The notes beneath the pieces are model-generated. The model saw only the letters and a program-made list of their open reading frames with translations. It was not told the DNA's origin and made no database searches. The translations under genes and the position numbers were made by a program. From a bacterium (GTDB taxonomy: Bacteria > UBA8248), in assembly GCA_965219955.1 (NCBI GenBank), contig OZ244799.1, positions 3,424,001-3,488,000 on the forward strand: a DNA stretch of 64,000 bases, in the 5' to 3' direction. Numbering within the stretch: the stretch's first letter is position 1; the number at the start of each line of letters is the position of its first letter. This document shows positions 1 through 49,592 of the stretch, in pieces.

Positions 1-132
1 AAAATCAGGGTCGCATATATGCGACCCCTACACACAAACAAATTTTCCTCTCGGGGTTTATCAACAAGCCCCTCAAGGGAGGAGTGATTTATTTCCTTTC
101 GGACTTTTTCAACAACCCCTTGTCAGGGGGGC
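1..132. mobile_element. Right ends of two nested MITE-like elements plus a GTAG-type REP palindrome (partial, window edge)
   Basis: gggtcgcatatatgcgacccctac (8-31); terminal motifs tttatcaacaagcccc and tttttcaacaacccc, the latter followed by ttgtcagggggg; start matches 51361-51426. Confidence 0.65.
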
Positions 133-153
133 TTTTCTTCTACCCCCTCGTCG

Positions 154-560
154 GAGGGCTGTTGAAAAGTCCTCATTACTCGAAAATAACCTCTGCCGTC
201 ATTCCGGCGAAAGCCGGAATCCATTCTAAAGCAGAATTACTATGTTCCGGCTTTTCATCTCCTCGTCATTGGCGGGAACCAAATAGAAAATAAAAAAAGC
301 AAAAATGGCTTCCGGCTTTCGCCGGAATGACGAACAAACCCGCCCCGACTCTCATATGGCTACACTATCAACCTCATCCTGAGTAGGCGCGCAAGCGCCG
401 TATCGAAGGATGCCCTCTCGTCCCGGCGCGAGCCCCTCGCCCTTCGATATGCCGCCTTCGGCGGCTACTCAGGGTGAGGGGTGGTGATGCCTCTATGGGC
501 GAGGAGAATGTTGCGCCGGTCAGTGTGAAAGTGAGATGCGCGGCCTACTCAGGGTGAGAG
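154..560. repeat. Cluster of REP-like palindromes behind a MITE-type left end
   Basis: gggctgttgaaaag end; inverted pair gtcattccggcgaaagccggaatcc (198-222) / ggcttccggctttcgccggaatgac (307-331); inverted pair ctcatcctgagtag..tatcgaagg / ccttcgata..ctactcagggtgag (373-478). Confidence 0.8.
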
Positions 561-33215: not shown

Positions 33216-33244
33216 AAACTACCCACAGGCCTACCCGAAGTCAA
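33216..33244 (-). promoter_or_regulatory. Candidate sigma70 promoter of the atp cluster
   Basis: Minus strand TTGACT-17 nt-TAGTTT. Confidence 0.5.
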
Positions 33245-33393
33245 GCCCCCCAGGGATTTTTTCCAACTTCTTGGATTCGAGTCGCCCGGCCCTGGATTTC
33301 GGGCGCACTTCGCTCCCCGCTCGAGGTGATTTGTGCTATTTTCCAGACAATCCCGAAACTCTCGCTTCACCGGCTTCATTCATGGAGAAAGCA

Positions 33394-34386: not shown

Positions 34387-34910
34387 AGATCGGGCGGCCA
34401 TTCGCCCAATTCAAGCTCCCCGTTCCACATGAGGCCGTGCCGGGGGTGGCCGAGCCTGGTCGGAGGCCCCAGGGCGTGTACGCGGACGCCTTCGAGCAGG
34501 AGCGAGACCCCGGCGATTCTCCTCTCGTATTTCTTGGGGTCGACGCCGTTGGGGTTCCCCCAGGCGGCCAATACAAGCTCCGCGCCATTGAGACTCTCCT
34601 TGATCCACGCATCGTTTCCCCTGCCCACCATCACCCGGTACGGGTGGGCGTTCAGCTCTTCGGGATAAGGAGAACGAAGCGCGAAGAGGTTCACGTACCG
34701 GATGCGGCCATATTCGTTCCTGCGCGCCCAGGCCTCGACTTTCCCCACGGTGGGGTCGCTCCTCTCGGCGGAAGCCGTGGAGGGATTCTTGAGGATAACG
34801 GTGAGCGTCCGCGCACGCTCCTCCGCAATCCGCACCTCCAGAAAATAGCGGTACCGCCCGTATTTCCGGGGAACGCACCCTGTCACTTCCCTCACCTTTT
34901 TCGGCGCCAT
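34383..34910 (-). CDS. DUF1643 family protein
   Basis: YRY.L, NPSTA...DPT, VNLFA, AAWG, GHPRH motifs. Confidence 0.8.
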   Translation of the reverse strand: MAPKKVREVTGCVPRKYGRYRYFLEVRIAEERARTLTVILKNPSTASAERSDPTVGKVEAWARRNEYGRIRYVNLFALRSPYPEELNAHPYRVMVGRGNDAWIKESLNGAELVLAAWGNPNGVDPKKYERRIAGVSLLLEGVRVHALGPPTRLGHPRHGLMWNGELELGEWPPDL

Positions 34911-34974
34911 GCTTTTCCTTCCCGCTAAAAGAGCCATACAATGCCCGTCCAGTCACCCAGGAGAAAGGACGGCC

Positions 34975-35751
34975 ATGCCATACGACAATCTATTATATGA
35001 AATCGAGGGGCCCCTCGCCCTGATCACCATCAACCGCCCTGATCGACATAATGCCATATCCCTGGCCACGCTGGACGATCTCCACGCCGCCATCGCCGAG
35101 GCGGCCGATGATGAAGCCGTCCGCGTCATCGCCATCACCGGGGCGGGCGAGAAGGCGTTCGCCTCGGGCTCCGATCTCAAGGAAGTCGAGCACAGAAACC
35201 TCGCTATCGCGCTCACCCCCCTGGTGCAGGGCGTGGCGGAGCGCCTGGAGAGGACGCCCAAGGCGACGATTGCGGCGATCAACGGCTATTGCATGGGCGG
35301 GGGCCTGGAGGTCGCGCTCGGCTGCGATTTGCGGGTCGCGACGCCCCAGTCGAAATTCGCCACGCCGGAGGGGAGGATCGGCATCATCCCGGGCGGCGGC
35401 GCCACGCAGCGCCTGCCCCGCCTCATCGGGCGCGCCTGGGCGATGGAGATGCTCCTGATGGGGGAGACCATCGATGCGAAACGCGCGCTCGAGATAGGCC
35501 TCATCACCCGGCTCGTAGAGGCGGAAGAACTCATGCCCACCGTCAGGAAGATGGCCGAAAAACTCGCCGCCTACGCGCCTTTCGTGCCCCAGTTCATGAA
35601 GGCCATGGTGCACTACGGCATGGAGGGCAGCATGACGGCGGGCCTGGCGCTCGAGAAATTCGCCCAGGGCGCGCTCTGCGAAACCGAGGACAAGGCGGAG
35701 GGCCTGCGCGCCTTCCTCGAGAAGAGAAAACCCGAATGGAAGGGCAGATGA
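34975..35751 (+). CDS. Enoyl-CoA hydratase/isomerase family protein
   Basis: INRPDRHNA, AFASGSDL, GGGLE, PEGRIGIIPGGGATQRL, AFLEKRKP. Confidence 0.94.
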   Translation: MPYDNLLYEIEGPLALITINRPDRHNAISLATLDDLHAAIAEAADDEAVRVIAITGAGEKAFASGSDLKEVEHRNLAIALTPLVQGVAERLERTPKATIAAINGYCMGGGLEVALGCDLRVATPQSKFATPEGRIGIIPGGGATQRLPRLIGRAWAMEMLLMGETIDAKRALEIGLITRLVEAEELMPTVRKMAEKLAAYAPFVPQFMKAMVHYGMEGSMTAGLALEKFAQGALCETEDKAEGLRAFLEKRKPEWKGR

Positions 35752-35752
35752 G

Positions 35753-36175
35753 TTGAGCCTCGAAGTCGCCGGCGTCCTGGAAACGTGCATCTATGCCGAA
35801 GATCTGGATGCGGCGGAGGCGTTCTACCGCTCCGTGCTGGGGCTGGAGGCGTTTCAAAGAGCGCCCGGCCGCCACGTTTTCTTTCGCTGCGGGCCGCATG
35901 CCGTTTTCCTCGTCTTCAACCCCGAAGCGACCTCCCGGCCCGACATGAAGCTCGGCGTGCCGACGCATGGCGCGGCGGGGCCGGGGCACGTGACGTTCTC
36001 CATACGCGAGGCCGATATGGCCTCCTGGCGAAAGCGGCTGGCGGAACAGGGGGTGGACATCGAGCAGGAGGTCGACTGGCCCGGCGGCGGACACTCCCTC
36101 TATTTCAGGGACCCGGCGGGGAACAGCGTGGAGCTCGCTTCGCCTCGCATCTGGCGGCTGCCCGAGCCCTCCTGA
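35753..36175 (+). CDS. VOC/glyoxalase family protein
   Basis: LETCIY, FYRSVLG, GHVTF, SLYFRDPAGNSVEL. Confidence 0.92.
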   Translation: MSLEVAGVLETCIYAEDLDAAEAFYRSVLGLEAFQRAPGRHVFFRCGPHAVFLVFNPEATSRPDMKLGVPTHGAAGPGHVTFSIREADMASWRKRLAEQGVDIEQEVDWPGGGHSLYFRDPAGNSVELASPRIWRLPEPS

Positions 36176-36396
36176 ATTTCAAGTGGTTGTAAATACTCGC
36201 GTTCTGCGGTCGATCTCCCGATGTTATTTTCGTTTATTTATCGGAAAACCCCGTGAATTTATCTGATTTTAGCGAATTTTCCGGAAATTCCCCAAGGCCT
36301 CGAAGAGGACGAGCCCGACCGAGGCGAGGCGGTTGAAAAAGCCATCCACACTCAGAATTCACCGCCGCCGGAATGACCAACAAAGCCGCAAGGGCT

Positions 36397-36470
36397 GTAG
36401 GGACAGGCCCCCGTGCCTGTCCGATGCCCTGTACTACAAGGGACAACCACAGGGGGCAGGACAACCCTTT
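36397..36470. repeat. GTAG-type REP palindrome(s)
   Basis: gtagggacaggcccccgtgcctgtcc and a degenerate partner. Confidence 0.55.
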
Positions 36471-36500
36471 TAGGTTGTCCTGCTGCAAAACCCCCTCCCC

Positions 36501-36808
36501 GGGGTTGTTGAAAAGTCCCTCGATGCGGGAACACCACCGTCATTCCGGCCTTGAGCCGGAATCCATTTTTATGATTTTTGCTTTCGTTTTCGCATTTGAT
36601 TCCGATTCGCGGGAGAGAGCGTTGCGCCCGAATGCGGAACGGACGAGGCGGACATATACGGCGGCGTCCGTATTTTCCCCGGCCGGAAGTGAGGATGTCC
36701 GGGGGAAAGGCCAAAGACAAAGGCGAAAATGGATTCCGGCTCAAGGCCGGAATGACGAGCAAAGGCGAAGGTCAATCCCGAGCGAAGCAAGGCTTTTTCA
36801 ACAGCCCC
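36501..36808. mobile_element. MITE-like element carrying a gtcattccggc inverted pair
   Basis: ggggttgttgaaaag...tttttcaacagcccc ends; inner gtcattccggccttgagccggaatcc / ggattccggctcaaggccggaatgac; reverse homolog of 12853-13186. Confidence 0.75.
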
Positions 36809-37110
36809 GATGAAGGAGCGAACGCGTTTCCCCGGGGAAGGGGAAAAACGCGCCTCCTGAAGCCGAATCGCCCGAATCGCTTCTCTCCTCCTCGCGTCCA
36901 CAAGCGCGGCAATCCCCCGATCGGGATTGATTTTCCGCGCGGGATTCTCCCCCGCCCCGCGAAAAACCCGGTAACCCCAAATGCGGGAAAATGCGCGGCC
37001 CGTTCCTGCCGGGCAAGAGGGCCGGACAATCCCACCGAACACCCGGCGCCCATGCGCGCCCGCGCATCCCCCATGACCCGATATTCGCCATCCCCCCCTC
37101 TAAAAAAACC

Positions 37111-37294
37111 TTGCGTCCCGCGCGCTGCGTATCGTAATCTGAACGCATATTCATTTTTGTTGCGACAGATCTACGCGGGTATTGCCATATCGGTAACGAA
37201 GCAGAAAGTCTCGTCCACGCCTCGATGAGGCCGGGTGTCGGCGCGAACGAACGCCCCGTCGCGCTTCCCGCCGCGGACGGCCCGGGGCACGAGG
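37111..37294 (+). promoter_or_regulatory. Promoter-like boxes plus conserved structured 5' leader (copy 1)
   Basis: TTGCGT-18 nt-TAATCT; 37209-37294 is highly similar to 41593-41678 and can form nested stems. Confidence 0.55.
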
Positions 37295-37354
37295 TCAATC
37301 CCGACCGGAGAGGGAGGGATTGCGCGATTGAATAGCCAACACACCAGGAGGATC

Positions 37355-40300
37355 ATGATGACATTTCCAAAGCGAATACTTCTGGCAACGCTTATCTCGG
37401 CGCTGTTCAGCGCATTGGCCGCCGCGCCCGCCGCCTTCGCGCAGGAGTGCCCACGCGGACCCGGCGTTCCGGAGCTCCCGCCTCCCGCCGTGACGGCAGC
37501 CGAAGCGGATGCGGACCCCACCAAACTGGGGGAATTCGCCCTGGCGGCGTTAAGCGCCACGATAGCTCCCACAAGGAGCATCGATGAGGCATATTACATC
37601 GCATGCCTGTTCAGGCAGAGAGGGGGGCCCTTCTTTTCCGGCTCCACCTATACCATCTCCCTGACTCTCGACGGCAGGGTGTGGATCAACGCGAACGACA
37701 TGTCGACGGGAGGCGAACCGCTCAACCCCCGGATTTATGGAGCGATCCTCCATGCGCTGGGAATCGACGTCACCAGCCCGGCCGCCATACAGGCCGGTCT
37801 GGGGAGCGTGGCCGCAACGGGAACCTTCCCGAAGCCGGAGGGCGGCGCATTCAACGCAGGTCCACTCGGCGTACCGGGCGCTTCGGGCTACGCAGTCGGA
37901 TACATCGCCCCCCGTACCCGAACTCCATTCATCCTGCTGGCCGGTTTCGATCTTCAGGCATCCCATCTGGCGCCGGATGACGTCGACCCCGGCATGCCCG
38001 CGATAACGGCCGCCCAGGTCACCGACCGCGCGACGCTCAAGCAATTCGTCGATGAAGCGGTGGATTTCGCGAAGACCCTCTTCGAAAGCGGGGATCCCGC
38101 CGCCTTCTCGAAAATAAGGATCGCCTTTCGGGATCCGAACGGCCCCTGGAGGCACGGCCCCACCTATCTCTTCGTCATGCAGCGCACCGGCTACACGATC
38201 TTTCACGGTGCGTTCCCGGACAGGTTCGAGTTCCAGACTCCGACAAATAACCTGAGGGAGCAGTTGCCGTCGGGTGAACAGGGCGACCTTATTCTGCCGA
38301 AGATCATCCGGACCGCGAGAAACAACCCCGCCGGCGACTTCGTGGAGTATTATTTCGACAACCCGGACGATCCCGCCGACGACTTCAACACCCTCAAGGT
38401 GAGCTACGTGCGCGAGTACGAAGTGGAAGTCCCGTTGCCGGGTGGAGGGGTTTACCGGGATGCGATCATCGTAGGCGCGGGGATCTACGGAGAAGGCGGG
38501 GGCATCGTGGCGCAAGGCTGCCCGCTCCCGGCGGGCGTGGCCGAGAATACTCTCGCCACCCCGAGCGTCACGGCCGCTGATGTGGAGGCGGATCCCAGCC
38601 GACTGATGGACTTCGCCCTCGCGGCGAAGCGATATATGGAGAGCGTCGAGAGAGGGCCGGAACTGGCGCACAACGCCTGCGTCGTCAGGCAGGATGGGCC
38701 CTGGAAGTCCGGCGACACCTATATCGTCACGATAAATACAGAGGGGAGGGTGTTCTTCCACTCGAAAAGCGCAGCGTTGGGCGGCAGGCCGCTCAAGCGT
38801 CCCGTTTGGGCGGCGATCGCCGCCGCGACGGGTGCTGCCGCATTGCGCACGACGCGCGCCTTCGGGAACCCGAACGGCGGCGCCTTGCCGGCGCAAATCG
38901 GCGGCGGCTACGCAGTCGGCTTCACGCGGGCAGGAGGCAATCCGCTCATCCTCGTCGCGGGCCTCGACATCGGGGAAGCGCACCTCGACAGGGAGACCAT
39001 CGACCCGGGCGACCCGACAGTACGGGCCGACCAGGTGGTGGACCGCGCAACACTCAAGACCTTCGTGGAAGAGGCGAGGGATTACGTCCTGAGCGCTTTC
39101 CGCTCAGAAGGCCGCGCAGCGTTCAACCAGGTAAAGAGCGTCTTGCGGGATCCGAATGGACCCTGGAGGCACGGCCCCGTCTATCTCTTCATCATGGAAC
39201 CCACCGGCTACACGATCTTTCACGGGGCTTTCCCCGATAAATTCGAATTCCGGAGGCCCACGGACACACTGAGAGACGAAGTCACCGGAGAACTCATTCT
39301 GCCGCAGATCATCCGGGTCGCGACAACCAGCAAAGACGGCGGCTTCGTGCGGTACTTCTTCGACAACCCCGATGATGATTCCGACAGCGCCGACGTACCC
39401 AAGGTGACCTATGCGCTCCAGCACCCTTTCGAGACGACGCTGGCGGACGGGAGCACGTTCGAATACCCGCTCATCTTCGGCGCGGGCATCTACGGGGATG
39501 AGGGTGCAGTGTCCGAGAAGAGCGTGGCGGCGGCGAGGGGCTGGCTGGCGCGCTTCGGCCGCGCGGTGGGAAGCCAGGCGGTGGACATGATCTCGAACCG
39601 CCTGAACGCGCCCGCGCAGGGCGGGGCGAAGATGACGCTCGGCGGCCGGACGGTGAAGCTGGATGCGGATCCGGACAGCTACCTGGCGAAAGAAGACGTG
39701 GGCCTCACCGCCTCCCTCGCGCATGACGGAATCGATTCCCGCGGCCTCTCGCGCCCGATACTCACGAACCGGTTGACCAATGGGGAGGAGGATTCCCCGG
39801 GGGCCTACCGCGAAATGACGATGAGCCAGCTGCTCTCGGGCGCTTCGTTCCACCTGGCTTCGACCAAGGAAGCCGCGGAGGCGGCGGGCAGCAGATGGTC
39901 GATCTGGGGCCGCGGCGCGCAGAGTTCGTTCGAGGGCGGCGGAGAGGCCGCGATCGAGGGCGACGTGACGACGGCCATGCTCGGCGTGGATTACGAGAAG
40001 GGCAGGCTCCTCGCGGGCGTGGCGCTCTCACGAGCCAGCGGCGACGGGGGTTTCCAGAACGGGGAGCTCGAGGCGACCCTCACGAGCGTGCATCCCTACC
40101 TCCGCTACGAGGCGAGCGAGCGGCTCTCGTTGTGGGGGGTCCTGGGCATGGGCCAGGGCGAGATGACGCTCGAGGAGAGCGATCAGAAACACGAGACCGA
40201 CATCGATATGCGCATGGGCGCGTTCGGGCTTCGCGGCGAGATAGCGAAGATGGGCGGGTTCGACCTGGCGCTCAAATCAGACGTCCTCCTCACGCAGATG

Positions 40301-40960
40301 GACTCGGACGCGAAGGACGGGCTCGAGGCCATCTCGGCGGAGTCGAGCCGCCTGCGGGTGATGCTCGAAGCCTCGCGCAAGGTCGCCATGGAGGGCGGCG
40401 GGACAATCAGGCCTTCGGTGGAGGTGGGTCTCCGCAACGACGGCGGCGACGTGGACGAGGGTATGGGCGTCGAAGTCGGCGGCAGCATTCGCTTCACGAG
40501 TCCCTCCATGGGCCTGACGCTCGAGGTGAATGCGCGGGGGCTCGTGACGCACGAGGAAAGCGACGTGAGCGACTGGGGCGTGGGCGGGATGATCCGCATC
40601 GCCCCGGGCAAGAAAGGCCGGGGACTCGCCCTCACCGTGCGGCCCGAAGTGGGAGAAACCGCGAGCGGCGCGGCGCGCCTGTGGGGTCTCAAGGACGCCT
40701 CGCGTCTCGCGAAAGAGGAAATCGAGGACCTCGACCCCCGCGTGCGCGCGGAGGTGGGCTACGGCCTGGACGCCTGGGGCGGCCTGCTCACACCCTACGC
40801 CGGCCTCTCGGTGTCGGATAGCGGAAACGGGACCTACCGCCTGGGAAGCCGCTTCAGGATGGGCGAGCGCCTGAGCATGAGCCTGGAGGGCGACGTGCGC
40901 GAGCGCGTGAACGCCGACCCGGTGCACGGCGTGGCGCTGCGAGGAACAATGCGCTGGTAG
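37355..40960 (+). CDS. Large secreted protein: 2 Cache-containing repeat modules plus autotransporter-like beta-barrel (1201 aa)
   Basis: AGGAGG RBS, signal peptide (..AFA/QEC), single-Cache-like motifs (FRDPNGPW, YLF.M...G...FHG, GFVRYFFDNP, KVTY, GAGIY), WLARFGR linker, WGRGA/LGVDY strands, terminal Trp. Confidence 0.8.
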   Translation: MMTFPKRILLATLISALFSALAAAPAAFAQECPRGPGVPELPPPAVTAAEADADPTKLGEFALAALSATIAPTRSIDEAYYIACLFRQRGGPFFSGSTYTISLTLDGRVWINANDMSTGGEPLNPRIYGAILHALGIDVTSPAAIQAGLGSVAATGTFPKPEGGAFNAGPLGVPGASGYAVGYIAPRTRTPFILLAGFDLQASHLAPDDVDPGMPAITAAQVTDRATLKQFVDEAVDFAKTLFESGDPAAFSKIRIAFRDPNGPWRHGPTYLFVMQRTGYTIFHGAFPDRFEFQTPTNNLREQLPSGEQGDLILPKIIRTARNNPAGDFVEYYFDNPDDPADDFNTLKVSYVREYEVEVPLPGGGVYRDAIIVGAGIYGEGGGIVAQGCPLPAGVAENTLATPSVTAADVEADPSRLMDFALAAKRYMESVERGPELAHNACVVRQDGPWKSGDTYIVTINTEGRVFFHSKSAALGGRPLKRPVWAAIAAATGAAALRTTRAFGNPNGGALPAQIGGGYAVGFTRAGGNPLILVAGLDIGEAHLDRETIDPGDPTVRADQVVDRATLKTFVEEARDYVLSAFRSEGRAAFNQVKSVLRDPNGPWRHGPVYLFIMEPTGYTIFHGAFPDKFEFRRPTDTLRDEVTGELILPQIIRVATTSKDGGFVRYFFDNPDDDSDSADVPKVTYALQHPFETTLADGSTFEYPLIFGAGIYGDEGAVSEKSVAAARGWLARFGRAVGSQAVDMISNRLNAPAQGGAKMTLGGRTVKLDADPDSYLAKEDVGLTASLAHDGIDSRGLSRPILTNRLTNGEEDSPGAYREMTMSQLLSGASFHLASTKEAAEAAGSRWSIWGRGAQSSFEGGGEAAIEGDVTTAMLGVDYEKGRLLAGVALSRASGDGGFQNGELEATLTSVHPYLRYEASERLSLWGVLGMGQGEMTLEESDQKHETDIDMRMGAFGLRGEIAKMGGFDLALKSDVLLTQMDSDAKDGLEAISAESSRLRVMLEASRKVAMEGGGTIRPSVEVGLRNDGGDVDEGMGVEVGGSIRFTSPSMGLTLEVNARGLVTHEESDVSDWGVGGMIRIAPGKKGRGLALTVRPEVGETASGAARLWGLKDASRLAKEEIEDLDPRVRAEVGYGLDAWGGLLTPYAGLSVSDSGNGTYRLGSRFRMGERLSMSLEGDVRERVNADPVHGVALRGTMRW

Positions 40961-40978
40961 TATAGAAGGGAAAACTCT

Positions 40979-41430
40979 GTAGGGGCCGTTCGCGAACGTG
41001 GGCCGTTCTTGTGAACGGCCCCTACGGGGAGGAAACACGTTTTCTGTAGGGACAGGTCGCGACCTGTCCTTGCGAGGCGGTTCGGTTTCGTTCGTCATTC
41101 CGGCAATCAATGCCGACCGACGAGGGAGGGATTGCCCGGAATCCATTTTCACGCCTTTTGCCTTTCTTCAGCCTTCCCGTGCATCGGCGGGGAAGGAAAC
41201 GCCGCCGTGTATTCACCCGCATCCGCAAATGGATTCCGGCTTTCGCCGGAATGACGATAATCTGCGGGTCGAGGTGGGATAGGGGCGGTTCGCGAACTCA
41301 TGAGCGCCCTTCGATACGCCGCCTTCGGCGGCTACTCAGGATGAAGAACGTGGGGAGCGGAGCTTGTCCCGAGCGAAGTCGAGGGGCCGCTACCCAGGGT
41401 GAGGCAGAGCGGTCGGCTACACAAGGTGAG
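40979..41430. repeat. Mixed REP-like cluster between the two paralogs
   Basis: GTAG palindromes 40979-41025 and 41046-41069; gtcattccggc pair to 41255; cttcgatacgccgccttcggcggctactcagg. Confidence 0.75.
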
Positions 41431-41496
41431 GAGGGGGGATTGCGTTGCTTTCGGGCGTCTCTCACACCGGACTTCCGCTATCCCCCCTGAAAAACC

Positions 41497-41678
41497 TTGC
41501 TTCTCGCGCGCTGCATATCGTAATCTAAACGCATAAACAGCATTCACGACATTTTCACGCCCGCTTCGCCGTACCGGAAACGAAACAGAGTATCTCGTCC
41601 ACGCCTTGATGAGGCGGGTTGCCGGCGCGACCGAACGCCCCGTCGCGCTTCCCGGCGCGGACGGCCCAAGACACGAGG
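41497..41678 (+). promoter_or_regulatory. Promoter-like boxes plus conserved structured 5' leader (copy 2)
   Basis: TTGCTT-18 nt-TAATCT; leader ends at the gaggag RBS. Confidence 0.55.
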
Positions 41679-41686
41679 AGAACACC

Positions 41687-44600
41687 ATGAGGACTCTAAA
41701 ACCGTTATTTTTCTTTTGCCTCGTTCTGACCCTGGCCGGCGTATTGGCCGGCGCGCCCCCCGTCTTCGCGCAGGATAGCTGCCCGCTTCCGGCGGGCGTC
41801 ACGGCGAATCCGCTCGCCACCCCGAGCATTACGGCGGCTGACGTGGAGGCGGATTCCAACCGATTGACGGACTTCGCCCTGGCGGCGAGAGACTATATGG
41901 AGAGCGTCCGGCCCCCGGGCGAATTGGCGCACAACGCTTGCATCATCCGCCAGGAGGGCCCCTGGAAGTCCGGCGGCACCTACCTCGTCACCATATCCCT
42001 TGATGGAAGGGTGTTCTTCCACTCGGCCAGGGCGGCGTTGGGCGGCAAGCCGCTCAGCAATGCGGTTCGTCTAGCCATTTATCGCGCGCTGGGCATCACC
42101 GCCACCGCGCCTGCCGACATCCGCGCCGCCCTGGTCAATGTGGCCGAAACAGGGAGCTTTCCGAACGCGGATGGGGGCGTCTTGCCGGCGGGAATCGGCG
42201 GCGGCTACGCTGTCGGGTTCAGGCGCACCGGGGGGAATCCGCTCATATTGGTCGCCGGACTCGATATCGGGGAAGCTCACTTCGGCACGGAAACCGTCGA
42301 CCCCGGCGACCCCGACGTGCGGGCCGACGAGGTGGTGGACCGCGCTACGCTCAAGGCCTTCGTGGAGGAAGCGACGCAGTACGTCATCGACCGCTACCGG
42401 GCGGAAGGCCGCACCGCTTTTACGCAAATAAAGAGCGTCTTGAGGGATCCGGCCGGACCCTGGAGGCACGGCCCGACCTATCTCTTCATCATGGAGCCCA
42501 CCGGCTACACGATCTTTCACGGCGCGTTCCCCGACAGGTTCGAGTTCCAGACGCCGACAGATACCCTGAGGGAGCAGTTGCCGTCGGGTGGACAGGGCGA
42601 CCTCATTCTGCCGAAGATCATCCGGACCGCGAGAAGCAACCCCGCCGGCGACTTCGTCGAGTATTATTTCGACAACCCCGACGACCCGAACGACGACTTC
42701 AACACCCTCAAGGTGAGCTACGTGCGCCAGCACGTCTTCCAGGCCACGAGGGCGGACGGGACCACGTTCGAATACCCGCTCATCTTCGGCGCGGGCATCT
42801 ACGGGGAAGGCGGGGGCATCGTGGCGCAAGGCTGCCCGCTCCCGGCGGGCGTCACGGCGAATCCCCTCGCCAGCCCGAGCGTAACGGCCGAGCAGGTGGA
42901 AGCGGGCTCCGCCGGTTTGAGCGATTTCGCCCTGGCCGCGAAGCGATACATGGAGAGCGTCGAGAGAGGGCCGGAACTGGCGCACAACGCCTGCGTCGTC
43001 AGGCAGGATGGTCCCTGGAAGTCCGGCGACACCTATCTCGTCACGATAAATACCGAGGGGAGGGTGTTCTTCCACTCGAAAAGCGCAGCGTTGGGCGGCA
43101 GGCCGCTCAAGCGTCCCGTCTGGGCGGCGATCGCCGCCGCGACGGGCGCTGCCGCGTTGCGCACGACAGGCGCCTTCGGGAACCCGAACGGCGGCGCATT
43201 ACCGGCGCAGATCGGCGGCGGCTACGCCGTCGGCTTCACGCGGGCAGGAGGCAATCCGCTCATCCTCGTCGCGGGCCTCGACATCGGGGAAGCACACCTC
43301 GACAGGGAGACCATCGACCCCGGCGACCCGACAGTGCGGGCCGACCAGGTGGTGGACCGCGCAACGCTCAGGACTTTCGTGAACGAAGCTACGGATTACG
43401 TCCTGAGCACTTTCCGCTCGGAAGGCCGCGCCGCGTTCAACAAGGTAAAGAGCGTCTTGCGGGATCCGAACGGACCCTGGAGGCACGGCCCCGTCTATCT
43501 CTTCATCATGGAACCCACCGGCTACACGATCTTTCACGGGGCGTTCCCCGACAGATTCGAATTCCGGAGGCCCACGGAAACCCTGAGAGACGAAGTCACC
43601 GGACGGCTCATTCTGCCGCAGATCATCCGGACAGCGACAAGCAGCGAGGACGGCGGTTTTGTCCAGTATTACTTCGACAACCCGGATGACCCGAACGACG
43701 ATTTCAACACATTCAAGGTGACCTACGCGCGCCAGCACGTCTTCAGCAGCACGCTGGCGGACGGGACCCCGTTCGAATACCCGCTCATCTTCGGCGCGGG
43801 CATCTACGGCGACCCGAGCGCGGTGGCGGAGGACGTCTGCCCGCGCCCACCGGGTCTTGCAGACAACCCCCTCGCCACCCCGGGCGTAACGGCGGCTCAG
43901 GCGACGGGCGGCGACAATCTTCGCGCCTTCGCGCTGGCGGGGAGAGACTATTTCAACTCCATTACGACGCCGCAGGGGTTGGCCTACGCCGGATGCCTCG
44001 TCAGGAACGAGGGCCCCTGGAAGTCAGGCGACACCTACATCTCCGCCCTGACGCTCGACGGCAGGGTGCTCCTGAACGGGAAAGACATGTCGACGGGAGG
44101 CAGGCCGCTCCAGGACGCGGTTTATGCGGGCATCCTCGGCGCGCTGGGAATCGATCTCGCCGATCCGAGGACCATACCTGCCCAACTGCAGCAGGTATTC
44201 GCAAATCGCGCTTTCCCGAACGCGGACGGCGGCGCATTGCCGGGCGGCGGCTACGCCGTGGGGTACTTTGGCAGCAATATCCCGTACATCCTGCTCGCAG
44301 GCGTAGACCTCCAGGAAGCGCACTTCAAGGAGGATACCGCCGACCCCGGCGACCCGGACGTTAGCGCCGATGAAGTGGTGGACCGCGCAACGCTCAAAGC
44401 CTTCGTGAACGGGGCGGTAGACTACCTGCTCGAACTCTACCGGACAAACCCCGCCGGAGCCATCGGAATCGCGAGAAGCATACTGAGAAGACCACCCTGG
44501 AAGCACGGCCCCGTCTATCTCTTCATCATGGAAGACAGCGGCTACACGCTCCTTCACGGGGGGTTCCCGGACAGGTTCGAATTCCAGACGCCGACGCAAA

Positions 44601-46294
44601 CCTTGCGGGACGAGGTGACCGGAAATCTCATCTTGCCGCAGATCATCAACGTGGCGAAACAAAGCGGGGAGGAGGGCGGCTTCGTGCGCTACTTCTTCGA
44701 CAACCCGGCCGACGACACCGACAGCGCAGACGTGCCGAAGGTGACCTACGCGCGCCTGTTGACATTCCCCATACCGGGAGGCCAGCCGGTTTCCTACATC
44801 GTCGGCGCGGGGATCTACGGGGATGAGGGCGCCGTGTCCGAGGAGAGCGTGGCGGCGGCGAGGGGCTGGCTGGCGCGCTTCGGCCGCGCGGTGGGAAGCC
44901 AGGCGGTGGAGATGATATCGAGCCGCCTGAACGCGCCCGCGCAGGGCGGGGCGAAGATGACCCTCGGCGGACGGACCGTGAACCTCGGTGCGGATATGGA
45001 ACGCTACCTGGCGAAAGAAGACGTGGGCCTCACCGCCTCCCTCTCGCATGATGGAATCGACGCCCGCGGCCTCTCGCGCCCGATACTCACGAACCGGCTG
45101 ACCAATGGGGAGGAGGATTCCCCGGGGGCCTACCGCGAGATGACGATGAGCCAGCTGCTCTCGGGCGCTTCGTTCCACCTGGCTTCGAACAAGGAAGCCG
45201 CGGAGGCGGCGGGCAGCAGGTGGTCCATCTGGGGCCGCGGCGCGCAGAGCTCCTTCGAGGGCGGCGGCGAGGCCGCGATCGAGGGCGACGTGACGACGGC
45301 CATGCTGGGCGTGGACTACGAGAAGGGCAAGCTCCTCGCGGGCGTGGCGCTCTCTCGCGCGAGCGGCGACGGGGGCTTCAGGAACGGAGGCCGCAGCGAG
45401 CTCGAGGCGACCCTCACGAGCGTGCACCCCTACCTCCGCTACGAGGCGAGCGAGCGGCTCTCGCTGTGGGGGGTCCTGGGCATGGGCCAGGGCGAGATGA
45501 CGCTCGAGGAGAGTGATCAGAAGCACGAGACCGACATTGATATGCGCATGGGCGCGTTCGGGCTTCGCGGCGCGCTCGCGAAGGTGGGCGGGTTCGACCT
45601 GGCGCTCAAATCCGACGTTATGCTGACGCAGATGGACTCGGACGCGAAGGACGGGCTCGAGGCCATCTCGGCGGAGTCGAGCCGCCTGCGGGTGATGCTG
45701 GAAGCCTCGCGCAAGGTCGCCATGGAGGGCGGCGGGACGCTCCGGCCTTCGGTGGAGGTGGGTCTCCGCAACGACGGCGGCGACGTGGACGAGGGTATGG
45801 GCGTCGAAGTCGGTGGCAGCCTGCGCTTCACGAGTCCCTCCATGGGCCTGACGCTCGAGGTGAATGCGCGGGGGCTCGTGACGCACGAGGAAGAAGACGT
45901 GAGCGACTGGGGCGTGGGCGGGATGATCCGCATCGCCCCGGGCAAGAAAGGCCGGGGACTCGCCCTCACCGTGCGGCCCGAAGTGGGAGAAACCGCGAGC
46001 GGCGCGGCGCGCCTGTGGGGTCTCAAGGACGCCTCGCGTCTCGCGAAAGAGGAAATCGAGGATCTCGACCCCCGCGTGCGCGCGGAGGTGGGCTACGGGC
46101 TGGACGCCTGGGGCGGCCTGCTCACGCCCTACGCCGGCCTCTCGGTGTCGGATAGCGGAAACGGGACCTACCGCCTGGGAAGCCGCTTCAGGATGGGCGA
46201 GCGCCTGAGCATGAGCCTGGAGGGCGACGTGCGAGAGCGCGTGAACGCCGACCCCGTCCACGGCGTGGCGCTGCGCGGCTCCCTGCGCTGGTAA
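41687..46294 (+). CDS. Large secreted protein: 3 Cache-containing repeat modules plus autotransporter-like beta-barrel (1535 aa)
   Basis: Signal peptide (..VFA/QDSC); three ~330-aa modules each starting with CP and ending GAGIYG; C-terminal region nearly identical to the paralog, ending LRGSLRW. Confidence 0.8.
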   Translation: MRTLKPLFFFCLVLTLAGVLAGAPPVFAQDSCPLPAGVTANPLATPSITAADVEADSNRLTDFALAARDYMESVRPPGELAHNACIIRQEGPWKSGGTYLVTISLDGRVFFHSARAALGGKPLSNAVRLAIYRALGITATAPADIRAALVNVAETGSFPNADGGVLPAGIGGGYAVGFRRTGGNPLILVAGLDIGEAHFGTETVDPGDPDVRADEVVDRATLKAFVEEATQYVIDRYRAEGRTAFTQIKSVLRDPAGPWRHGPTYLFIMEPTGYTIFHGAFPDRFEFQTPTDTLREQLPSGGQGDLILPKIIRTARSNPAGDFVEYYFDNPDDPNDDFNTLKVSYVRQHVFQATRADGTTFEYPLIFGAGIYGEGGGIVAQGCPLPAGVTANPLASPSVTAEQVEAGSAGLSDFALAAKRYMESVERGPELAHNACVVRQDGPWKSGDTYLVTINTEGRVFFHSKSAALGGRPLKRPVWAAIAAATGAAALRTTGAFGNPNGGALPAQIGGGYAVGFTRAGGNPLILVAGLDIGEAHLDRETIDPGDPTVRADQVVDRATLRTFVNEATDYVLSTFRSEGRAAFNKVKSVLRDPNGPWRHGPVYLFIMEPTGYTIFHGAFPDRFEFRRPTETLRDEVTGRLILPQIIRTATSSEDGGFVQYYFDNPDDPNDDFNTFKVTYARQHVFSSTLADGTPFEYPLIFGAGIYGDPSAVAEDVCPRPPGLADNPLATPGVTAAQATGGDNLRAFALAGRDYFNSITTPQGLAYAGCLVRNEGPWKSGDTYISALTLDGRVLLNGKDMSTGGRPLQDAVYAGILGALGIDLADPRTIPAQLQQVFANRAFPNADGGALPGGGYAVGYFGSNIPYILLAGVDLQEAHFKEDTADPGDPDVSADEVVDRATLKAFVNGAVDYLLELYRTNPAGAIGIARSILRRPPWKHGPVYLFIMEDSGYTLLHGGFPDRFEFQTPTQTLRDEVTGNLILPQIINVAKQSGEEGGFVRYFFDNPADDTDSADVPKVTYARLLTFPIPGGQPVSYIVGAGIYGDEGAVSEESVAAARGWLARFGRAVGSQAVEMISSRLNAPAQGGAKMTLGGRTVNLGADMERYLAKEDVGLTASLSHDGIDARGLSRPILTNRLTNGEEDSPGAYREMTMSQLLSGASFHLASNKEAAEAAGSRWSIWGRGAQSSFEGGGEAAIEGDVTTAMLGVDYEKGKLLAGVALSRASGDGGFRNGGRSELEATLTSVHPYLRYEASERLSLWGVLGMGQGEMTLEESDQKHETDIDMRMGAFGLRGALAKVGGFDLALKSDVMLTQMDSDAKDGLEAISAESSRLRVMLEASRKVAMEGGGTLRPSVEVGLRNDGGDVDEGMGVEVGGSLRFTSPSMGLTLEVNARGLVTHEEEDVSDWGVGGMIRIAPGKKGRGLALTVRPEVGETASGAARLWGLKDASRLAKEEIEDLDPRVRAEVGYGLDAWGGLLTPYAGLSVSDSGNGTYRLGSRFRMGERLSMSLEGDVRERVNADPVHGVALRGSLRW

Positions 46295-46314
46295 TATAGA
46301 AGGAGAATCGCCAA

Positions 46315-46345
46315 GGGGCGGCCCTCCGGGGCCGCCCCCGTTTTT
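46315..46345 (+). terminator. Rho-independent terminator (REP-like stem)
   Basis: ggggcggccc-tcc-ggggccgcccc hairpin followed by ttttt. Confidence 0.65.
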
Positions 46346-46430
46346 CATTTGGCAAAAGGGCTTCGTAGGGGCGGACCTATCCCGACCGAAGAGGGGGAGG
46401 CAGGGATTGCAAGATGCGTAGTTTTAACAA

Positions 46431-46680
46431 TCACTCCCCCCTTTGAGGGGGAGTCGAAGAGCTGAGGGCGTAAGCCCGAAAGCGATTCGGTGGGGGGAGT
46501 AATTCGGATGGCGATAAAACGCATTTTACCCCCCACCGAGTCAGCCTTCGCACAAAACGCTCGGCTTCCTCGTCGGGCTTTCCCCTCGGGAAGCCCGACC
46601 CTCAAGGGGGGAGTGATTTTTCTCTCTCGTCGGTCGGTTACATACGACAAATCCAGAGTTCCAGGGTTTTTCAACAACCC
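46431..46680. mobile_element. Palindromic cassette plus MITE-type right end
   Basis: tcactcccccctttgaggggg...ccctcaaggggggagtga, then the reverse complement of the 6366-6430 flank ending tttttcaacaaccc. Confidence 0.7.
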
Positions 46681-46848
46681 TTTGAGGGTCAGGCGCATCC
46701 GGGGCGGGTCGTCCCTGAAAAACCCTTTTCCCGGCAGGGCGAACGCCACTTTCCTGTTGCAATTCCCCGCCTCGCCTTCTACGATATTTCCCGCTGGAGC
46801 GCATCCGCGCCATAGACTCGTCACCCTTCAAAATGCGAGGATAGAAGA

Positions 46849-48546
46849 GTGAAAACCGCACTGACTCTCATCGCCACCCTATGTGTTTTCCTCACCGCGC
46901 AGGCGGCCCACGCCGCGCGCGGGGCCGACGGGCACCTGCGCATCATCTACTGGCAGGCGCCCTCCACCATGAACCCCTACCTCTCGGGCGGCACCAAGGA
47001 GATAGAGGCCGCATCGCTGGTCCTGGAGCCCCTCGCGCGCTACGACCAGAACGGCGACATGAAGCCCTGGCTCGCCGAACGGGTCCCCACGCTGGAAAAC
47101 GGCGGCGTGTCGAAGGATTTGCGCACCATCACCTGGAAGCTAAAGGGCGGCCTCAAGTGGGCCGACGGAACGCCGGTGACGGCCAAAGACGTGGTCTTCA
47201 CCTGGAAATACTGCACGCATCCCCAGGGGGGGTGCTCCCAGAGCGAGAAATACAACGACGTGAAGAACGTGGAGGCCCTCGACGCGCGAACGGTGCGCGT
47301 GACCTTCGGCGCCTCGAAACCCTTTCCCTACGGGCCGTTCGTCGGCGCGCAGGCGCCCATCATCCAGGCGGCGCAGTTCGCCGACTGCCTGGGCGCCAGG
47401 GCGCCGCGCTGCACCGACGCCAACTTCAAGCCCGTGGGCACGGGGCCGTTTACAGTCGCCGAGTTCCGCCCGAACGACGTCATCTCCTTCGTCGCCAACA
47501 ACAACTACCGCGACCCGGCCAGGCCCGCCTTCGCGCGGGTCACCTTCAAGGGGGGGGGCGACGCGGCGGCGGCGGCCCGCTCGGTGCTGGAGACCGGCGA
47601 GTTCGACTACGCCTGGAACCTGCAACTCGCCCCCGACGTGCTGGCGAACATGAAAAAGGCGGGCAAGGGGGTGGTCATCTCCTCGTTCGGTACGCTCGTC
47701 GAGCGCATCGTCGTGAACCTCACGAATCCGGCCCCAGGGCTCGGCAAGGAGCGCTCCACCGCCAGGCACCCGCATCCTTTTCTCTCGGACCCGAGCGTCC
47801 GCAAGGCGCTCTCGATGGCGATCGACCGGAAGCTGCTCGTCGAGATCGGCTACGGCCCCGCCGGCAGGCCAACGTGCAACATCCTCCCCGCGCCCGCCAT
47901 CTACAAGTCCACGGCCAACGATGCGTGCCTCAAGCAGGATATCCCCGGCGCGAACAGGCTGCTCGATGCGGCGGGCTGGAAACGCGGGCCGGGCGGCGTG
48001 CGCGCCAAGAACGGCGTGAAACTCTCGATTCTCTACCAGACCTCCACCAACGCCGTGCGCCAGGATTTCCAGGCGCTGATAAAACAGTGGTGGTCCAAGA
48101 TCGGCGTCGAGACCGAGCTTCGCAACATCAGCGCCTCGGTGTTCTTCGGCGGCGACCCGGCGAGCGGCGACACCTTCCAGAAGTTCCAGGCCGACGTGCA
48201 GATGTACGCCAACAATTTCGACGGCACGGACCCCGAATCCTACATGGCGAACTGGGCGTGCAAGGAAGCGCCGCGTCCCGAAACGCAGTGGCAGGGCAAC
48301 AACGTGCCGCGCTTCTGCGACCCCGCCTACGACGCGCTCATCGCCAAAATGGCGCGCGCCGGCGCGCTCAAGGAACGGGCGCGGCTCGCCAGGGCCATGA
48401 ACGACATGGTGGTGCAGGCCTACGCGATCATTCCGCTGGTCGACCGCGGGCGCGTATCGGCCCACGCCAAGACGCTGGGCGGCGTGGTCCTGAACACCTG
48501 GGATTCGGAGCTTTGGAACATCGCCGACTGGCGCCGCGTCAAATAG
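46849..48546 (+). CDS. Peptide ABC transporter substrate-binding protein (family 5)
   Basis: Signal peptide, WQAPSTMNPY, GTGPF, VRKALSMAIDR, WNIADW. Confidence 0.93.
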   Translation: MKTALTLIATLCVFLTAQAAHAARGADGHLRIIYWQAPSTMNPYLSGGTKEIEAASLVLEPLARYDQNGDMKPWLAERVPTLENGGVSKDLRTITWKLKGGLKWADGTPVTAKDVVFTWKYCTHPQGGCSQSEKYNDVKNVEALDARTVRVTFGASKPFPYGPFVGAQAPIIQAAQFADCLGARAPRCTDANFKPVGTGPFTVAEFRPNDVISFVANNNYRDPARPAFARVTFKGGGDAAAAARSVLETGEFDYAWNLQLAPDVLANMKKAGKGVVISSFGTLVERIVVNLTNPAPGLGKERSTARHPHPFLSDPSVRKALSMAIDRKLLVEIGYGPAGRPTCNILPAPAIYKSTANDACLKQDIPGANRLLDAAGWKRGPGGVRAKNGVKLSILYQTSTNAVRQDFQALIKQWWSKIGVETELRNISASVFFGGDPASGDTFQKFQADVQMYANNFDGTDPESYMANWACKEAPRPETQWQGNNVPRFCDPAYDALIAKMARAGALKERARLARAMNDMVVQAYAIIPLVDRGRVSAHAKTLGGVVLNTWDSELWNIADWRRVK

Positions 48547-48584
48547 GCCCGCGCGCCGCTTAAGGGCCACCGAGGCTTAAGGCG

Positions 48585-49592
48585 ATGGGAACCTACACGC
48601 TGAGGCGGCTGCTCTTCGCCGTACCCACGCTCCTCTTCATCAGCCTCGTCATATTCCTGCTGCTCGACCTCGCCCCCAGCGACCCCACGGCGAACCTCCC
48701 CCTCACGATTCCGCCCGAGGTGCGCCAGAAAATCCGCGAGTCCCTGGGGCTCGGCCAGCCCATCCACGTCCGCTACCTGCTGTGGTGCAAGCAGTTTTTC
48801 ATCAACGAGCCGCTGAACGTGCTCGACGCCCTGCTCGGCTACGCGGGCGACTCCGACAGGCTCCGCGTGCTGAGCTGGCAGACGCGCTCCCCGGTCGTGG
48901 ACTTGATCGTCGAGCGCCTGCCGCAGACCCTGTGGGTGGTGGGACTCTCCTACGTCATCGGCGTTTTGATCGCGATACCCATCGGGGTCGTCTCCGCCTA
49001 CAGGCAATACAGCTGGTTCGACCAGATCGGCACCTTCGTCTCCACCGTGGGCTTTTCGGTGCCGACGTTCTTCACCGGCGTGCTGCTGATCGTCGTCTTC
49101 TCCGTCGGCCTGGGGTGGTTCCCCTCCATCTACGACACCACGCACCGCGTGACGGACTGGAGCAGCTTCCTCGTCCAGGCGCGGCAGATGGCGATGCCCG
49201 TCTTCGTGCTCGCCCTCTACAACGCGGCCCAGATCGCCCGCTTCATGCGCGCCTCCATGCTCGAGAACCTGGGCCAGGACTACGTGCGCACCGCGCGGGG
49301 CAAGGGCTTTCACGAGCGGCGCATACTCTTCGTCCACGTCCTGCGCAACTCGATGATCCCCGTCGTCACCATCATCGCGCTCGGCGTGCCGCAGGTGTTC
49401 GGCGGCGCGATCATCACCGAGCAGATATTCAAGGTGAACGGGCTGGGGCAGCTGCTCATCGTCGCCATCCAGGGGGGAGACCTGCCGACCGTGCAGACGC
49501 TCACCTTCATCTTCGCGGGGCTGATCGTGGCGTTCAACCTCGTCGCCGACGTCCTCTACGGGGTACTGGACCCCACCATCCGCTATGACTAG
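48585..49592 (+). CDS. Peptide ABC permease (OppB-like)
   Basis: DYVRTARGKG, HVLRNS, TEQIF, LDPTIRY. Confidence 0.93.
   Translation: MGTYTLRRLLFAVPTLLFISLVIFLLLDLAPSDPTANLPLTIPPEVRQKIRESLGLGQPIHVRYLLWCKQFFINEPLNVLDALLGYAGDSDRLRVLSWQTRSPVVDLIVERLPQTLWVVGLSYVIGVLIAIPIGVVSAYRQYSWFDQIGTFVSTVGFSVPTFFTGVLLIVVFSVGLGWFPSIYDTTHRVTDWSSFLVQARQMAMPVFVLALYNAAQIARFMRASMLENLGQDYVRTARGKGFHERRILFVHVLRNSMIPVVTIIALGVPQVFGGAIITEQIFKVNGLGQLLIVAIQGGDLPTVQTLTFIFAGLIVAFNLVADVLYGVLDPTIRYD

Follow-up and report, generated by a model that had tools for sequence, protein, structure and literature searches.

Among the extracellular sensor modules of prokaryotic signalling proteins, Cache domains are considered the principal group. 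When sensor domains of gut bacteria were screened, every characterised sCache_2 chemoreceptor domain bound L-lactate or pyruvate (PMC11844446). Here we describe two neighbouring genes, A and B, from a 64,000-nucleotide stretch of a bacterial genome (the window; GTDB lineage UBA8248, assembly GCA_965219955.1, contig OZ244799.1, positions 3,424,001 to 3,488,000). Very probably they are tandem paralogues of a type Va autotransporter in which Cache domains arranged in an array take the place of a beta-helix adhesin or an enzyme as passenger. The Cache domain and the type Va barrel are both well known. The original prediction, made from the sequence alone, read the two products as surface-displayed, multivalent ligand-binding proteins with no signalling output. 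Our analysis supports this interpretation, in which surface exposure and ligand binding are the parts that we infer.

Genes A and B encode putative signal peptides and arrays of Cys-Pro modules

The plus strand carries two long open reading frames (ORFs) that, from the ATG starts chosen in the original prediction, give proteins of 1201 (gene A) and 1535 residues (gene B). The Kyte-Doolittle mean over 19 residues reaches at least 1.6 only in the first ~30 residues, with maxima elsewhere of 1.32 in A and 1.16 in B. Judged by hydropathy and by eye, both N-termini look like Sec signal peptides with AxA-type cleavage sites (AFA/Q and VFA/Q). The predicted lengths and signal peptides thus agree with the ORFs and the hydropathy profile.

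In the mature proteins a Cys-Pro pair follows the cleavage site by two or three residues, and the same CP opens every module. The modules, two in A and three in B, are 327-357 residues long and contain exactly two cysteines each (A 32/84 and 389/442; B 32/85, 383/436 and 718/770), with one more Cys in the signal peptide of B. Across the five modules the mean column identity is 70% and pairwise identity about 48-88%; A-M1 is 47-56% identical to the others in the five-module alignment and 48-57% when compared pairwise. The C-terminal domains of A (485 residues) and B (489 residues) are 95% identical. The five-module alignment and the cysteine positions bear out the earlier description of two or three modules of ~330 residues with a Cys-Pro start and a second Cys, and the motifs quoted with it are all present (GPWKSG, GGYAVG, RDPNGPWRHG, YLF.M, FHG, FDNP, KV.Y, GAGIY, WLARFGR and a terminal W). 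The ORFs, repeats and motifs as seen are far beyond chance.

Pfam assigns dCache_2 (PF08269) to A with 35.7 bits and to B with 63 bits (gathering score 26.5), and sCache_2 (PF17200) with 26.2 and 38.3 bits (gathering score 25). Beyond the dCache_2 and sCache_2 matches, whole-protein Pfam scans of A and B gave nothing else of note above gathering scores, and an NCBIfam scan of both returned nothing meaningful. As had been claimed, Pfam finds no kinase, methyl-accepting chemotaxis protein (MCP) or GGDEF domain in A or B, and hydropathy finds no hydrophobic segment beyond the signal peptide, hence no internal transmembrane helix. Because there is no transmembrane or output domain, binding cannot be signalled, and the proteins would therefore act by binding alone.

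A paired sCache_2 fold is predicted for each module

We modelled module B-M3 with AlphaFold2 (AF2) from an alignment of 64 rows, consisting of B-M3 itself and 63 single-module relatives. The model reached a predicted local distance difference test score (pLDDT) of 94.5 and a predicted template modelling score (pTM) of 0.91. Its best solved matches in Foldseek are sCache_2 sensor domains, led by 4K08 (E 1.1e-5) and 5G4Y (3.2e-5) and followed by 2QHK/4EXO and TlpB (overall 1e-5 to 3e-4). In an exhaustive structural scan of 48,161 chains with a background Z of 7-8, model residues 179-329 superimpose on chain A of 4K08 with Z 15.0 and a root mean square deviation (rmsd) of 2.8 Å over 133 of 144 residues. 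The same C-terminal half (C-half) aligns with 4EXO chain A at Z 14.5 and with TlpB at Z 13.2. In the model, the C-half is a clear sCache_2 fold, which is what the original prediction had called a canonical single-Cache-like half.

Residues 1-178 of B-M3 are covered by no match in the structural scan with the whole-module model. Sub-alignments of this N-terminal half (N-half) and of the C-half match each other in hhalign with 96% probability (E 3.3e-9, 118 columns), pairing GPWKSG..Y......GRV..H of the N-half with PPWKHG.VYLF....G....HG of the C-half. The nearest clusters of the N-half in the ESM Atlas are Cache/sCache_2, at 0.94-0.95. By this comparison the N-half appears as a diverged, degenerate duplicate of the C-half, in line with the degenerate first half proposed earlier. 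Since the C-half has structural matches and the N-half is homologous to it, each module is read as a tandem pair of sCache_2-type domains of which the first is degenerate. The dCache_2 match in Pfam spans only profile positions ~80-184 of 298, and model residues 179-329 are the only part with which dCache structures align; the layout resembles two single Cache domains in series. The N-half, with its invariant Cys pair, is probably a spacer stabilised by a putative disulfide.

Sequence searches of solved structures gave no such matches. With whole B, phmmer returned S-layer matches at E~0.9 only, a profile of the module alignment (A2) had 0 matches at E<=1, and the C-half alone hit only chance legumin matches (E 0.65-1).

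The C-terminal domain is modelled as a type Va barrel with additions

For the C-terminal domain (ct), the last 489 residues of B were folded with AF2 using the same relatives as for the module. The model contains a helix at 6-35, a region at 40-126 with pLDDT of about 30, 12 strands at 131-370 with pLDDT 84-97 and six more strands at 378-487 with pLDDT 35-85. In Foldseek the top ranks go to classical autotransporter barrels (BrkA, EstA, Hbp, NalP, EspP and AIDA-I). On realignment, NalP gives Z 29.6 with an rmsd of 2.0 Å over 258 of 279 residues (model range 7..372), followed by Hbp (Z 28.9), AIDA-I (27.9), EspP (27.7), EstA (26.8) and BrkA (25.1; model range 131..372, 235 of 250 residues). PF03797 scores 42.4 bits on the isolated domain of A and 46.8 bits on that of B, with profile positions 1-209 on ct 135-325, and it maps alike in nine relatives. 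The whole-protein Pfam scan had missed PF03797; we rejected its absence as a filter effect, as the isolated domains score. Strands 1-12 are modelled as a canonical type Va barrel with the WLARFGR helix in the pore, and in the model the C-terminal domain thus contains a beta-barrel as predicted.

Two parts of the domain occur in none of the matched solved autotransporters, namely the ~90-residue insert between pore helix and strand 1 and the ~117-residue extension after strand 12. Conservation of the extension (ct 373-489) is strong throughout the family, and the terminal ...LRW lies on it. Alignments to solved autotransporters reach no further than ct 372-380. Pfam finds no match in the extension, whether it is scanned by itself or together with the final strands of the barrel; the ESM Atlas offers no clear neighbour (<=0.91, few shared features), and hhalign gives 6% for a barrel repeat, which the extension is not. 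The terminal residue is W in 99 and F in 9 of the 111 barrel-bearing homologs, and both the model and Pfam end the barrel at ct ~372. The original prediction of a WLARFGR helix followed by a beta domain ending in Trp therefore needs one amendment: helix and Trp are both present, and the helix is modelled as a pore-spanning linker, but the 12-strand barrel ends before the Trp, which sits on the extension. The unusual barrel domain may be related to the handling of Cys-containing modules.

The C-half carries a conserved pocket of carboxylate-sensor type

The pyruvate contacts of 4EXO are Y96, F98, H109, F148, W150 and K161, and a His-to-Leu change at the H109 position marks lactate sensors (PMC11844446). 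In the C-half of B-M3, Y227, F229, H240, Y285, F287 and K301 follow in the same order, spaced +2, +11, +45, +2, +14 compared with +2, +11, +39, +2, +11 in 4EXO. All six positions are present in 5 of the 5 window modules. We tabulated 266 distinct full-length modules from 120 protein matches and 78 genomic loci. Y227, H240, Y285 and K301 are each kept in 266/266, position 287 is aromatic in 266/266 and position 229 in 255/266. Further residues are invariant in the same 266 modules (R217, E248, D288, P290, D292, D295, G325 and Y327), and the two cysteines are kept in 265 and 266 of them. The modules conserve this pocket despite an overall identity of only about 45%. The pocket integrity that the original prediction had proposed to check looks preserved, with the six positions kept in 255-266 of the 266 modules.

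Judged by these residues, the C-half resembles a functional carboxylate-binding site of the pyruvate/acetate/propionate (His) type. Its family-specific acidic loop (D288, D292, D295) might hold Ca2+ or a cationic group. In the N-half the Tyr is kept in 257/266 modules and the His in 220/266, with Asn instead in 44; the half-to-half alignment and the five window modules show the Lys lost to a Gly run.

Could the Cache fold serve as a protein-protein or structural scaffold that takes no small ligand, its conserved residues being structural? The Cache domains of Cachd1 and of the Ca-channel alpha2delta subunit belong to extracellular eukaryotic proteins, not to bacterial-type sensors, and chains of these proteins rank lower in our structural scan (8s7c, Z 9.3; 8x90, Z 8.5). 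Together with the N-half that lacks the Lys position they speak for a scaffold. The retention of six ligand-contact and eight further residues in 255-266 of 266 modules, at the overall identity given above, fits a specific pocket better, and we regard the scaffold as improbable. A surface enzyme, in which the invariant His, Lys, Tyr, Arg, Glu and Asp would be catalytic on an extracellular substrate, would account for the full or near-full invariance of 16 residues across phyla, a degree of conservation usual for active sites. However, the structural neighbours at Z of at least 8 are all sensor or ligand-binding domains and we know of no catalytic Cache domain, which makes this explanation highly improbable.

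Relatives carry the module on several predicted anchors, with no output domain found in those sampled

A word-indexed search with gene A yielded 386 relatives, which the databases name only 'autotransporter domain-containing protein' or 'hypothetical protein'. Architectures were counted with our own hidden Markov models (HMMs) in the best 120 of the 386. In 111 of these 120, one to four modules are followed by a barrel (71, 22, 15 and 3 proteins with 1, 2, 3 and 4 modules). HMMER over 1.84 billion cluster representatives returned 372 matches at E<=1e-3 and 76 at E<=1e-30. No kinase, MCP, HAMP, GGDEF or other output domain was found in 30 relatives of varied length, taken from the 150 listed. 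These 30 proteins contain Cache arrays (up to seven sCache_2 with PF03797), type IX secretion system (T9SS) tails, PKD, lamin-tail, DUF4397 or an outer-membrane protein barrel; other relatives add the spacer domains PKD, Big_2 and lamin-tail.

When one genome per species was scanned, 351 encoding stretches came up; 78 loci were kept, all of them from metagenome-assembled genomes (MAGs). In 77 of the 78 loci 101 family ORFs were called, 46 with a barrel and 27 ending in LY[LIF][KR]; in 14 of the 77 loci, 2-4 family genes stand in tandem. Proteins representing the LY[LIF][KR] group give matches to the type A sorting domain of the T9SS (TIGR04183, 1.4e-8; PF18962), and relatives of the module end in a T9SS sorting domain in MAGs of Latescibacterota, Gemmatimonadota and Rhodothermales. 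Pfam and NCBIfam find no such domain (TIGR04183/PF18962) in A or B; it is seen in relatives only. One Spirochaetia relative is a single-module lipoprotein with an LAGC lipobox, Acidobacteriota proteins join the module to further standard sCache_2 domains, and some relatives carry the module with unassigned C-terminal domains of 150-230 residues.

The barrel, T9SS-tail and lipoprotein forms make the module a portable extracytoplasmic unit that uses different display systems in different phyla. Barrel-borne Cache arrays are thus real, as first proposed, but they are only one of several architectures, the module being found elsewhere on T9SS domains and on a lipoprotein.

Several observations stand beside these counts. 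In P0126 (2142 residues), P0143 (1718 residues) and P0155 (1448 residues), 4-7 canonical sCache_2 domains in a row precede a PF03797 barrel; surface Cache arrays therefore extend beyond the family with the tandem-half module. Single-module T9SS proteins occur as 3-4 tandem genes in Latescibacterota and Gemmatimonadota MAGs (L033, L044, L054, L065 and L079). A WD40-repeat protein of ~1575 residues lies near family genes in 4 loci (L034, L035, L044 and L077).

The lack of an output domain and the sharing of the family by co-resident phyla would also suit a released scavenger or signal sink, in which the passenger is cleaved (or secreted by the T9SS) and becomes a soluble sponge for a signal or an inhibitory acid. 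Cleavage of the passenger is common among classical autotransporters. Neither a cleavage motif nor a protease domain was identified in the proteins, T9SS type A sorting domains usually lead to surface attachment, and stoichiometric sequestration would be costly. We therefore give this explanation a small chance.

The family is rare, patchy and mixed across phyla

Record titles place relatives in Nitrospinota, Thermodesulfobacteriota, Alpha- and Gammaproteobacteria, Binatia, Latescibacterota, Gemmatimonadota, Acidobacteriota, Nitrospirales, Spirochaetia and Rhodothermales. In the taxonomic survey called for by the original prediction, 111 of the best 120 homologs have the barrel architecture, and the family spans more than 10 phyla. 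The family is rare, patchy within the genus and mixed across these phyla. Within the genus, the module is present in 12 of 22 other genomes; in 18 genomes outside the genus it is present in 0. In the window's own genome, a single contig of 4.28 Mb, all five modules lie within genes A and B.

A quick maximum-likelihood tree was built from 71 modules, one per locus with a full module (68) plus three window modules (A-M2 and B-M2 were left out). Phylum labels change 24 times on this tree compared with a minimum of 9 and a shuffled mean of 38.9, and well-supported mixed clades join, for example, Latescibacterota with Gemmatimonadota and Spirochaetota with Binatota. This pattern of sequences fits repeated transfer between phyla.

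Near-identical DNA (23-56% of sampled words) was found in metagenome runs from sponge (three studies), marine (one) and coral (one) samples, a count that leaves out one more study from which the window itself may come. Within a single study, two metatranscriptome runs from sponge gave contigs that fall on both genes, for example at 42361-42858 with 9 differences in 498 bases, and that cover 18 of 30 bins (X19) and 17 of 30 bins (X20). These RNA contigs are consistent with transcription and are not proof of it.

Genes A and B occupy a variable accessory slot

The window was compared with the same-genus genome G008, in which the flanks 30665-36281 and 46757-48767 are conserved at 87-88%. In place of the 10.5 kb between them (36282-46756), G008 has 4.4 kb of other genes (L087 5614-9986), encoding an FGE-sulfatase-like protein, an AAA_21 ATPase and a BRCT protein. 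At the same site, genome G002 (L088), also of the genus, has a single three-module gene. From the two comparisons, A and B represent a local duplication and the site is a variable accessory slot.

Upstream, on the minus strand, lie an F-type ATP synthase operon, a DUF1643 gene (34383-34937) and ORFs without a family; an Opp-type ABC transporter lies downstream of gene B. The ATP synthase operon includes, at 31874-33145 (minus strand), two tandem ATP-synt_B genes (a b and b' pair). Between this operon and gene A, ORFs without a Pfam family occupy 33376-36094 (minus strand) and 36352-37228. The stretch is conserved in same-genus genomes up to 36281, and the ORFs beyond belong to the variable slot.

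The spacer between the genes contains a sequence resembling a miniature inverted-repeat transposable element (MITE) at about 41085-41260, with nested terminal inverted repeats TCGTCATTCCGGC...GCCGGAATGACGA and CCGGAATCCATTT...AAATGGATTCCGG. The window's own genome contains 98 matches to the element, about 30 of them copies of 120-165 bp at 84-93% identity. Contig depth at the element is 4800-7000 in two metagenome runs; in two RNA-library runs it is 280-350. At E<=0.1, Rfam finds no family in 36000-47000, the MITE-like element included. Just 3' of the stop of gene A, 40979-41025 and 41050-41069 form perfect GC-rich palindromes (13-nt arms with a 21-nt loop; 10-nt arms with no loop), which may be elements like repetitive extragenic palindromes (REP) or terminators. 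The features of genes A and B are collected in Table 1.

Table 1 Features of genes A and B and of the spacer between them, in window coordinates. Residue numbers marked ct refer to the C-terminal domain of B.
Feature	Position	Strand	Evidence
Gene A, 1201 aa: signal peptide, 2 Cache modules, autotransporter domain	37355..40960	+	ORF and translation; Pfam dCache_2 and sCache_2; own-HMM architecture mod-mod-ct
Putative signal peptide of A (aa 1-29, ...AAFA/QEC)	37355..37441	+	Hydrophobic 19-aa windows; cleavage site by eye
Module A-M1 (aa 32-388), most divergent of the five	37448..38518	+	Alignment; identity to the others
Module A-M2 (aa 389-716), 88% identical to B-M2	38519..39502	+	Alignment
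C-terminal autotransporter domain of A, 485 aa	39503..40960	+	PF03797 E 9.2e-11, 42.4 bits, isolated-domain scan; 95% identical to the domain of B
Intergenic spacer with palindromes and MITE-like repeat (about 41092-41257), separating the duplicated genes, outside both proteins	40961..41686		Inverted repeats; genome copies
Gene B, 1535 aa: signal peptide, 3 Cache modules, autotransporter domain	41687..46294	+	ORF and translation; Pfam; own-HMM architecture
Putative signal peptide of B (aa 1-28, ...PVFA/QDSC)	41687..41770	+	Hydropathy; cleavage site by eye
Module B-M1 (aa 32-382)	41780..42832	+	Alignment; own HMM
Module B-M2 (aa 383-717)	42833..43837	+	Alignment; own HMM
B-M3 N-half (module residues 1-178), diverged sCache_2-like, Cys1-Cys53 pair, Lys pocket position lost	43838..44371	+	hhalign to C-half; ESM Atlas; Cys conservation
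B-M3 C-half (module residues 179-329), modelled canonical sCache_2 fold with Y227, F229, H240, Y285, F287, K301 and acidic loop D288/D292/D295	44372..44824	+	AF2; structural matches; pocket conservation
Linker helix (ct 6-35, WLARFGR...), modelled in the barrel pore	44840..44929	+	AF2 helix; NalP, Hbp, AIDA-I and EspP alignments start at model residues 1-7
Low-confidence insert (ct 40-126, pLDDT about 30) between pore helix and strand 1	44942..45202	+	AF2; distant relatives match the ct HMM only from position ~107-110
Modelled 12-stranded autotransporter beta-barrel (ct 131-372)	45215..45940	+	12 DSSP strands; BrkA alignment; PF03797 profile 1-209 on ct 135-325
C-terminal extension conserved in the family (ct 373-489; six strands predicted; ...LRW at its end), past the canonical barrel	45941..46291	+	No solved autotransporter aligns beyond 372-380; conserved across 64 sequences

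A conserved neighbour was sought in the 78 loci, and none is common to more than 7; an operon-based function was rejected on this count. The Opp peptide transporter was likewise rejected as a partner, as it belongs to a conserved flank that is also present in G008, where the module query matched nothing. The most frequent neighbour is a group II decarboxylase dependent on pyridoxal phosphate (PLP; PF00282), which adjoins a Cache-array gene in 7 of the 78 loci from several phyla (L012, L015, L017, L024, L025, L056 and L075) and is 73-88% identical across them. Its best NCBIfam match is diaminobutyrate decarboxylase, with 220 bits compared with a cut-off of 900. The window's own genome has two tandem copies (88% and 84% identical) at G000:C1:3068867-3071909, about 390 kb away.

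These neighbours bear on the surface capture of a free small metabolite, in which a scarce or host-derived carboxylate, possibly an amino or omega-amino acid or a metal-carboxylate complex, would be held for uptake. The logic resembles that of NEAT-domain haem receptors and of surface B12-binding lipoproteins. In favour of capture, the small-acid pocket of sCache_2 type is complete and invariant, the characterised sCache_2 chemoreceptor domains cited at the outset all bound small acids, the invariant D288, D292, D295 and E248 could hold an ammonium group or a metal, and the PLP-dependent decarboxylase adjoins family genes in its 7 loci. On the other side, there is no transporter or TonB-dependent receptor among the conserved neighbours of the 78 loci, the Opp operon beside gene B belongs to a flank independent of A and B, and small acids cross porins and would gain little from surface tethering. 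Taken together, metabolite capture seems rather unlikely.

A tentative role as lectin-like surface binders

By analogy with solved autotransporters, the Sec machinery would export the proteins, the C-terminal 12-strand barrel would go into the outer membrane with the WLARFGR helix occupying its pore, and the Cache array would come to the cell surface. There, the C-half pocket would bind a carboxylate-type ligand, with R217, E248 and the acidic loop added to it. On balance we expect that the Cache arrays bind such a ligand outside the cell. Going further, we propose tentatively, and at somewhat less than an even chance, that the proteins are multivalent, lectin-like surface binders, that is, adhesins. 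Their ligand would then be a carboxylate-bearing group in the sponge or coral host matrix or on neighbouring cells, and host-associated bacteria would exchange the gene family horizontally as an accessory trait. We favour adhesion over the capture of free metabolites because modules and genes have been multiplied, because relatives carry spacer domains typical of surface proteins, because the display systems are those that adhesins use and because no uptake system is linked.

A more specific form of this proposal appears quite unlikely to us. It would make the module a horizontally shared 'symbiosis lectin' whose pocket, opened and extended by the Asp-rich and possibly Ca2+-binding loop, reads acidic sugar decorations. 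Candidate ligands would be the pyruvate-ketal galactose or uronic acids of sponge aggregation-factor proteoglycans, which occur about 100 times per glycan (PMC7828597). More than ten phyla would use the exchanged module, on a type Va barrel, a T9SS tail or a lipoprotein, to dock to the host matrix or to be recognised as residents. The six extra strands and the periplasmic insert would then have adapted type V secretion to a passenger that is globular and contains Cys.

Several points weigh against the interpretation as a whole. The pockets of sCache_2 domains normally enclose free C2/C3 acids between two aromatics (PMC11844446); a polymer-attached group may not fit such a pocket, which favours the capture of a free ligand over adhesion. 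The pocket was mapped by residue order and spacing, not by residue-level superposition. The barrel domain departs from the classical form through its 90-residue insert and its 117-residue extension at pLDDT 35-85, which makes the modelled topology provisional. Engineered disulfide-bonded elements stall the secretion of Hbp (PMC8419823), and a Cys pair 52 residues apart fits poorly with type Va secretion. Apparent transfer across phyla can be mimicked or inflated by MAG binning errors and paralogy, the habitat labels come from runs found with a single query sequence and not from a family survey, and the RNA contigs may include DNA carry-over.

Comparison with known systems

In the literature searched (main texts outside subscription journals, without supplements), we found no description of Cache domains on autotransporters or on T9SS cargo. 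The original prediction had named no characterised example of the architecture, and in that literature there is none; nor did the modules turn out to have a non-Cache fold or the C-terminus to be anything other than a barrel in our models. If the architecture is as described, the role of Cache domains extends from sensing to binding, with surface arrays reached through at least three anchoring systems, and type V secretion gains a new class of passenger together with a barrel domain off the textbook form. A globally rare family that is shared by MAGs of many phyla, with DNA matches from sponge and coral, would also be a testable candidate for a host-association factor.

The closest systems on the passenger side are the sCache_2 sensors of chemoreceptors (Adeh_3718, 4K08; a Vibrio parahaemolyticus MCP, 4EXO/2QHK; PscD, 5G4Y; Helicobacter pylori TlpB, 3UB6). 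They share the fold with the modelled modules (Z 13-15, rmsd 2.8-3.3 Å, 132-133 residues, 17-25% identity), and their six carboxylate-contact positions are likewise ordered, with near-identical spacing. Unlike these receptors, the modules have no flanking transmembrane helices and no cytoplasmic output, and they are predicted to be anchored in the outer membrane. The modules further differ in the duplication into N- and C-half, the 2-3 repeats, the Cys pair, a longer acidic beta3-beta4 loop and the residues R217 and E248.

T9SS cargo with type A sorting domains resembles relatives of the module, which have these domains, whereas A and B use the autotransporter barrel instead. An analogy can also be drawn to NEAT-domain surface receptors, which like A and B are surface arrays of small ligand-binding domains without a signalling part. 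Fold, envelope type and ligand are unrelated, and NEAT genes lie beside their transporters, unlike A and B.

On the side of the anchor, the type Va autotransporters NalP, Hbp, EspP, AIDA-I, BrkA and EstA share with A and B the signal peptide, the passenger and, as modelled for B, the pore helix and the 12-strand barrel (Z 25-30, rmsd 2.0-2.6 Å). A and B differ from them in a passenger that is a Cache array, in the ~90-residue insert, in the ~117-residue extension bearing the terminal Trp and in cysteines 52 residues apart. The passenger of EstA is globular and not a beta-helix, and in this it is like the passengers of A and B.

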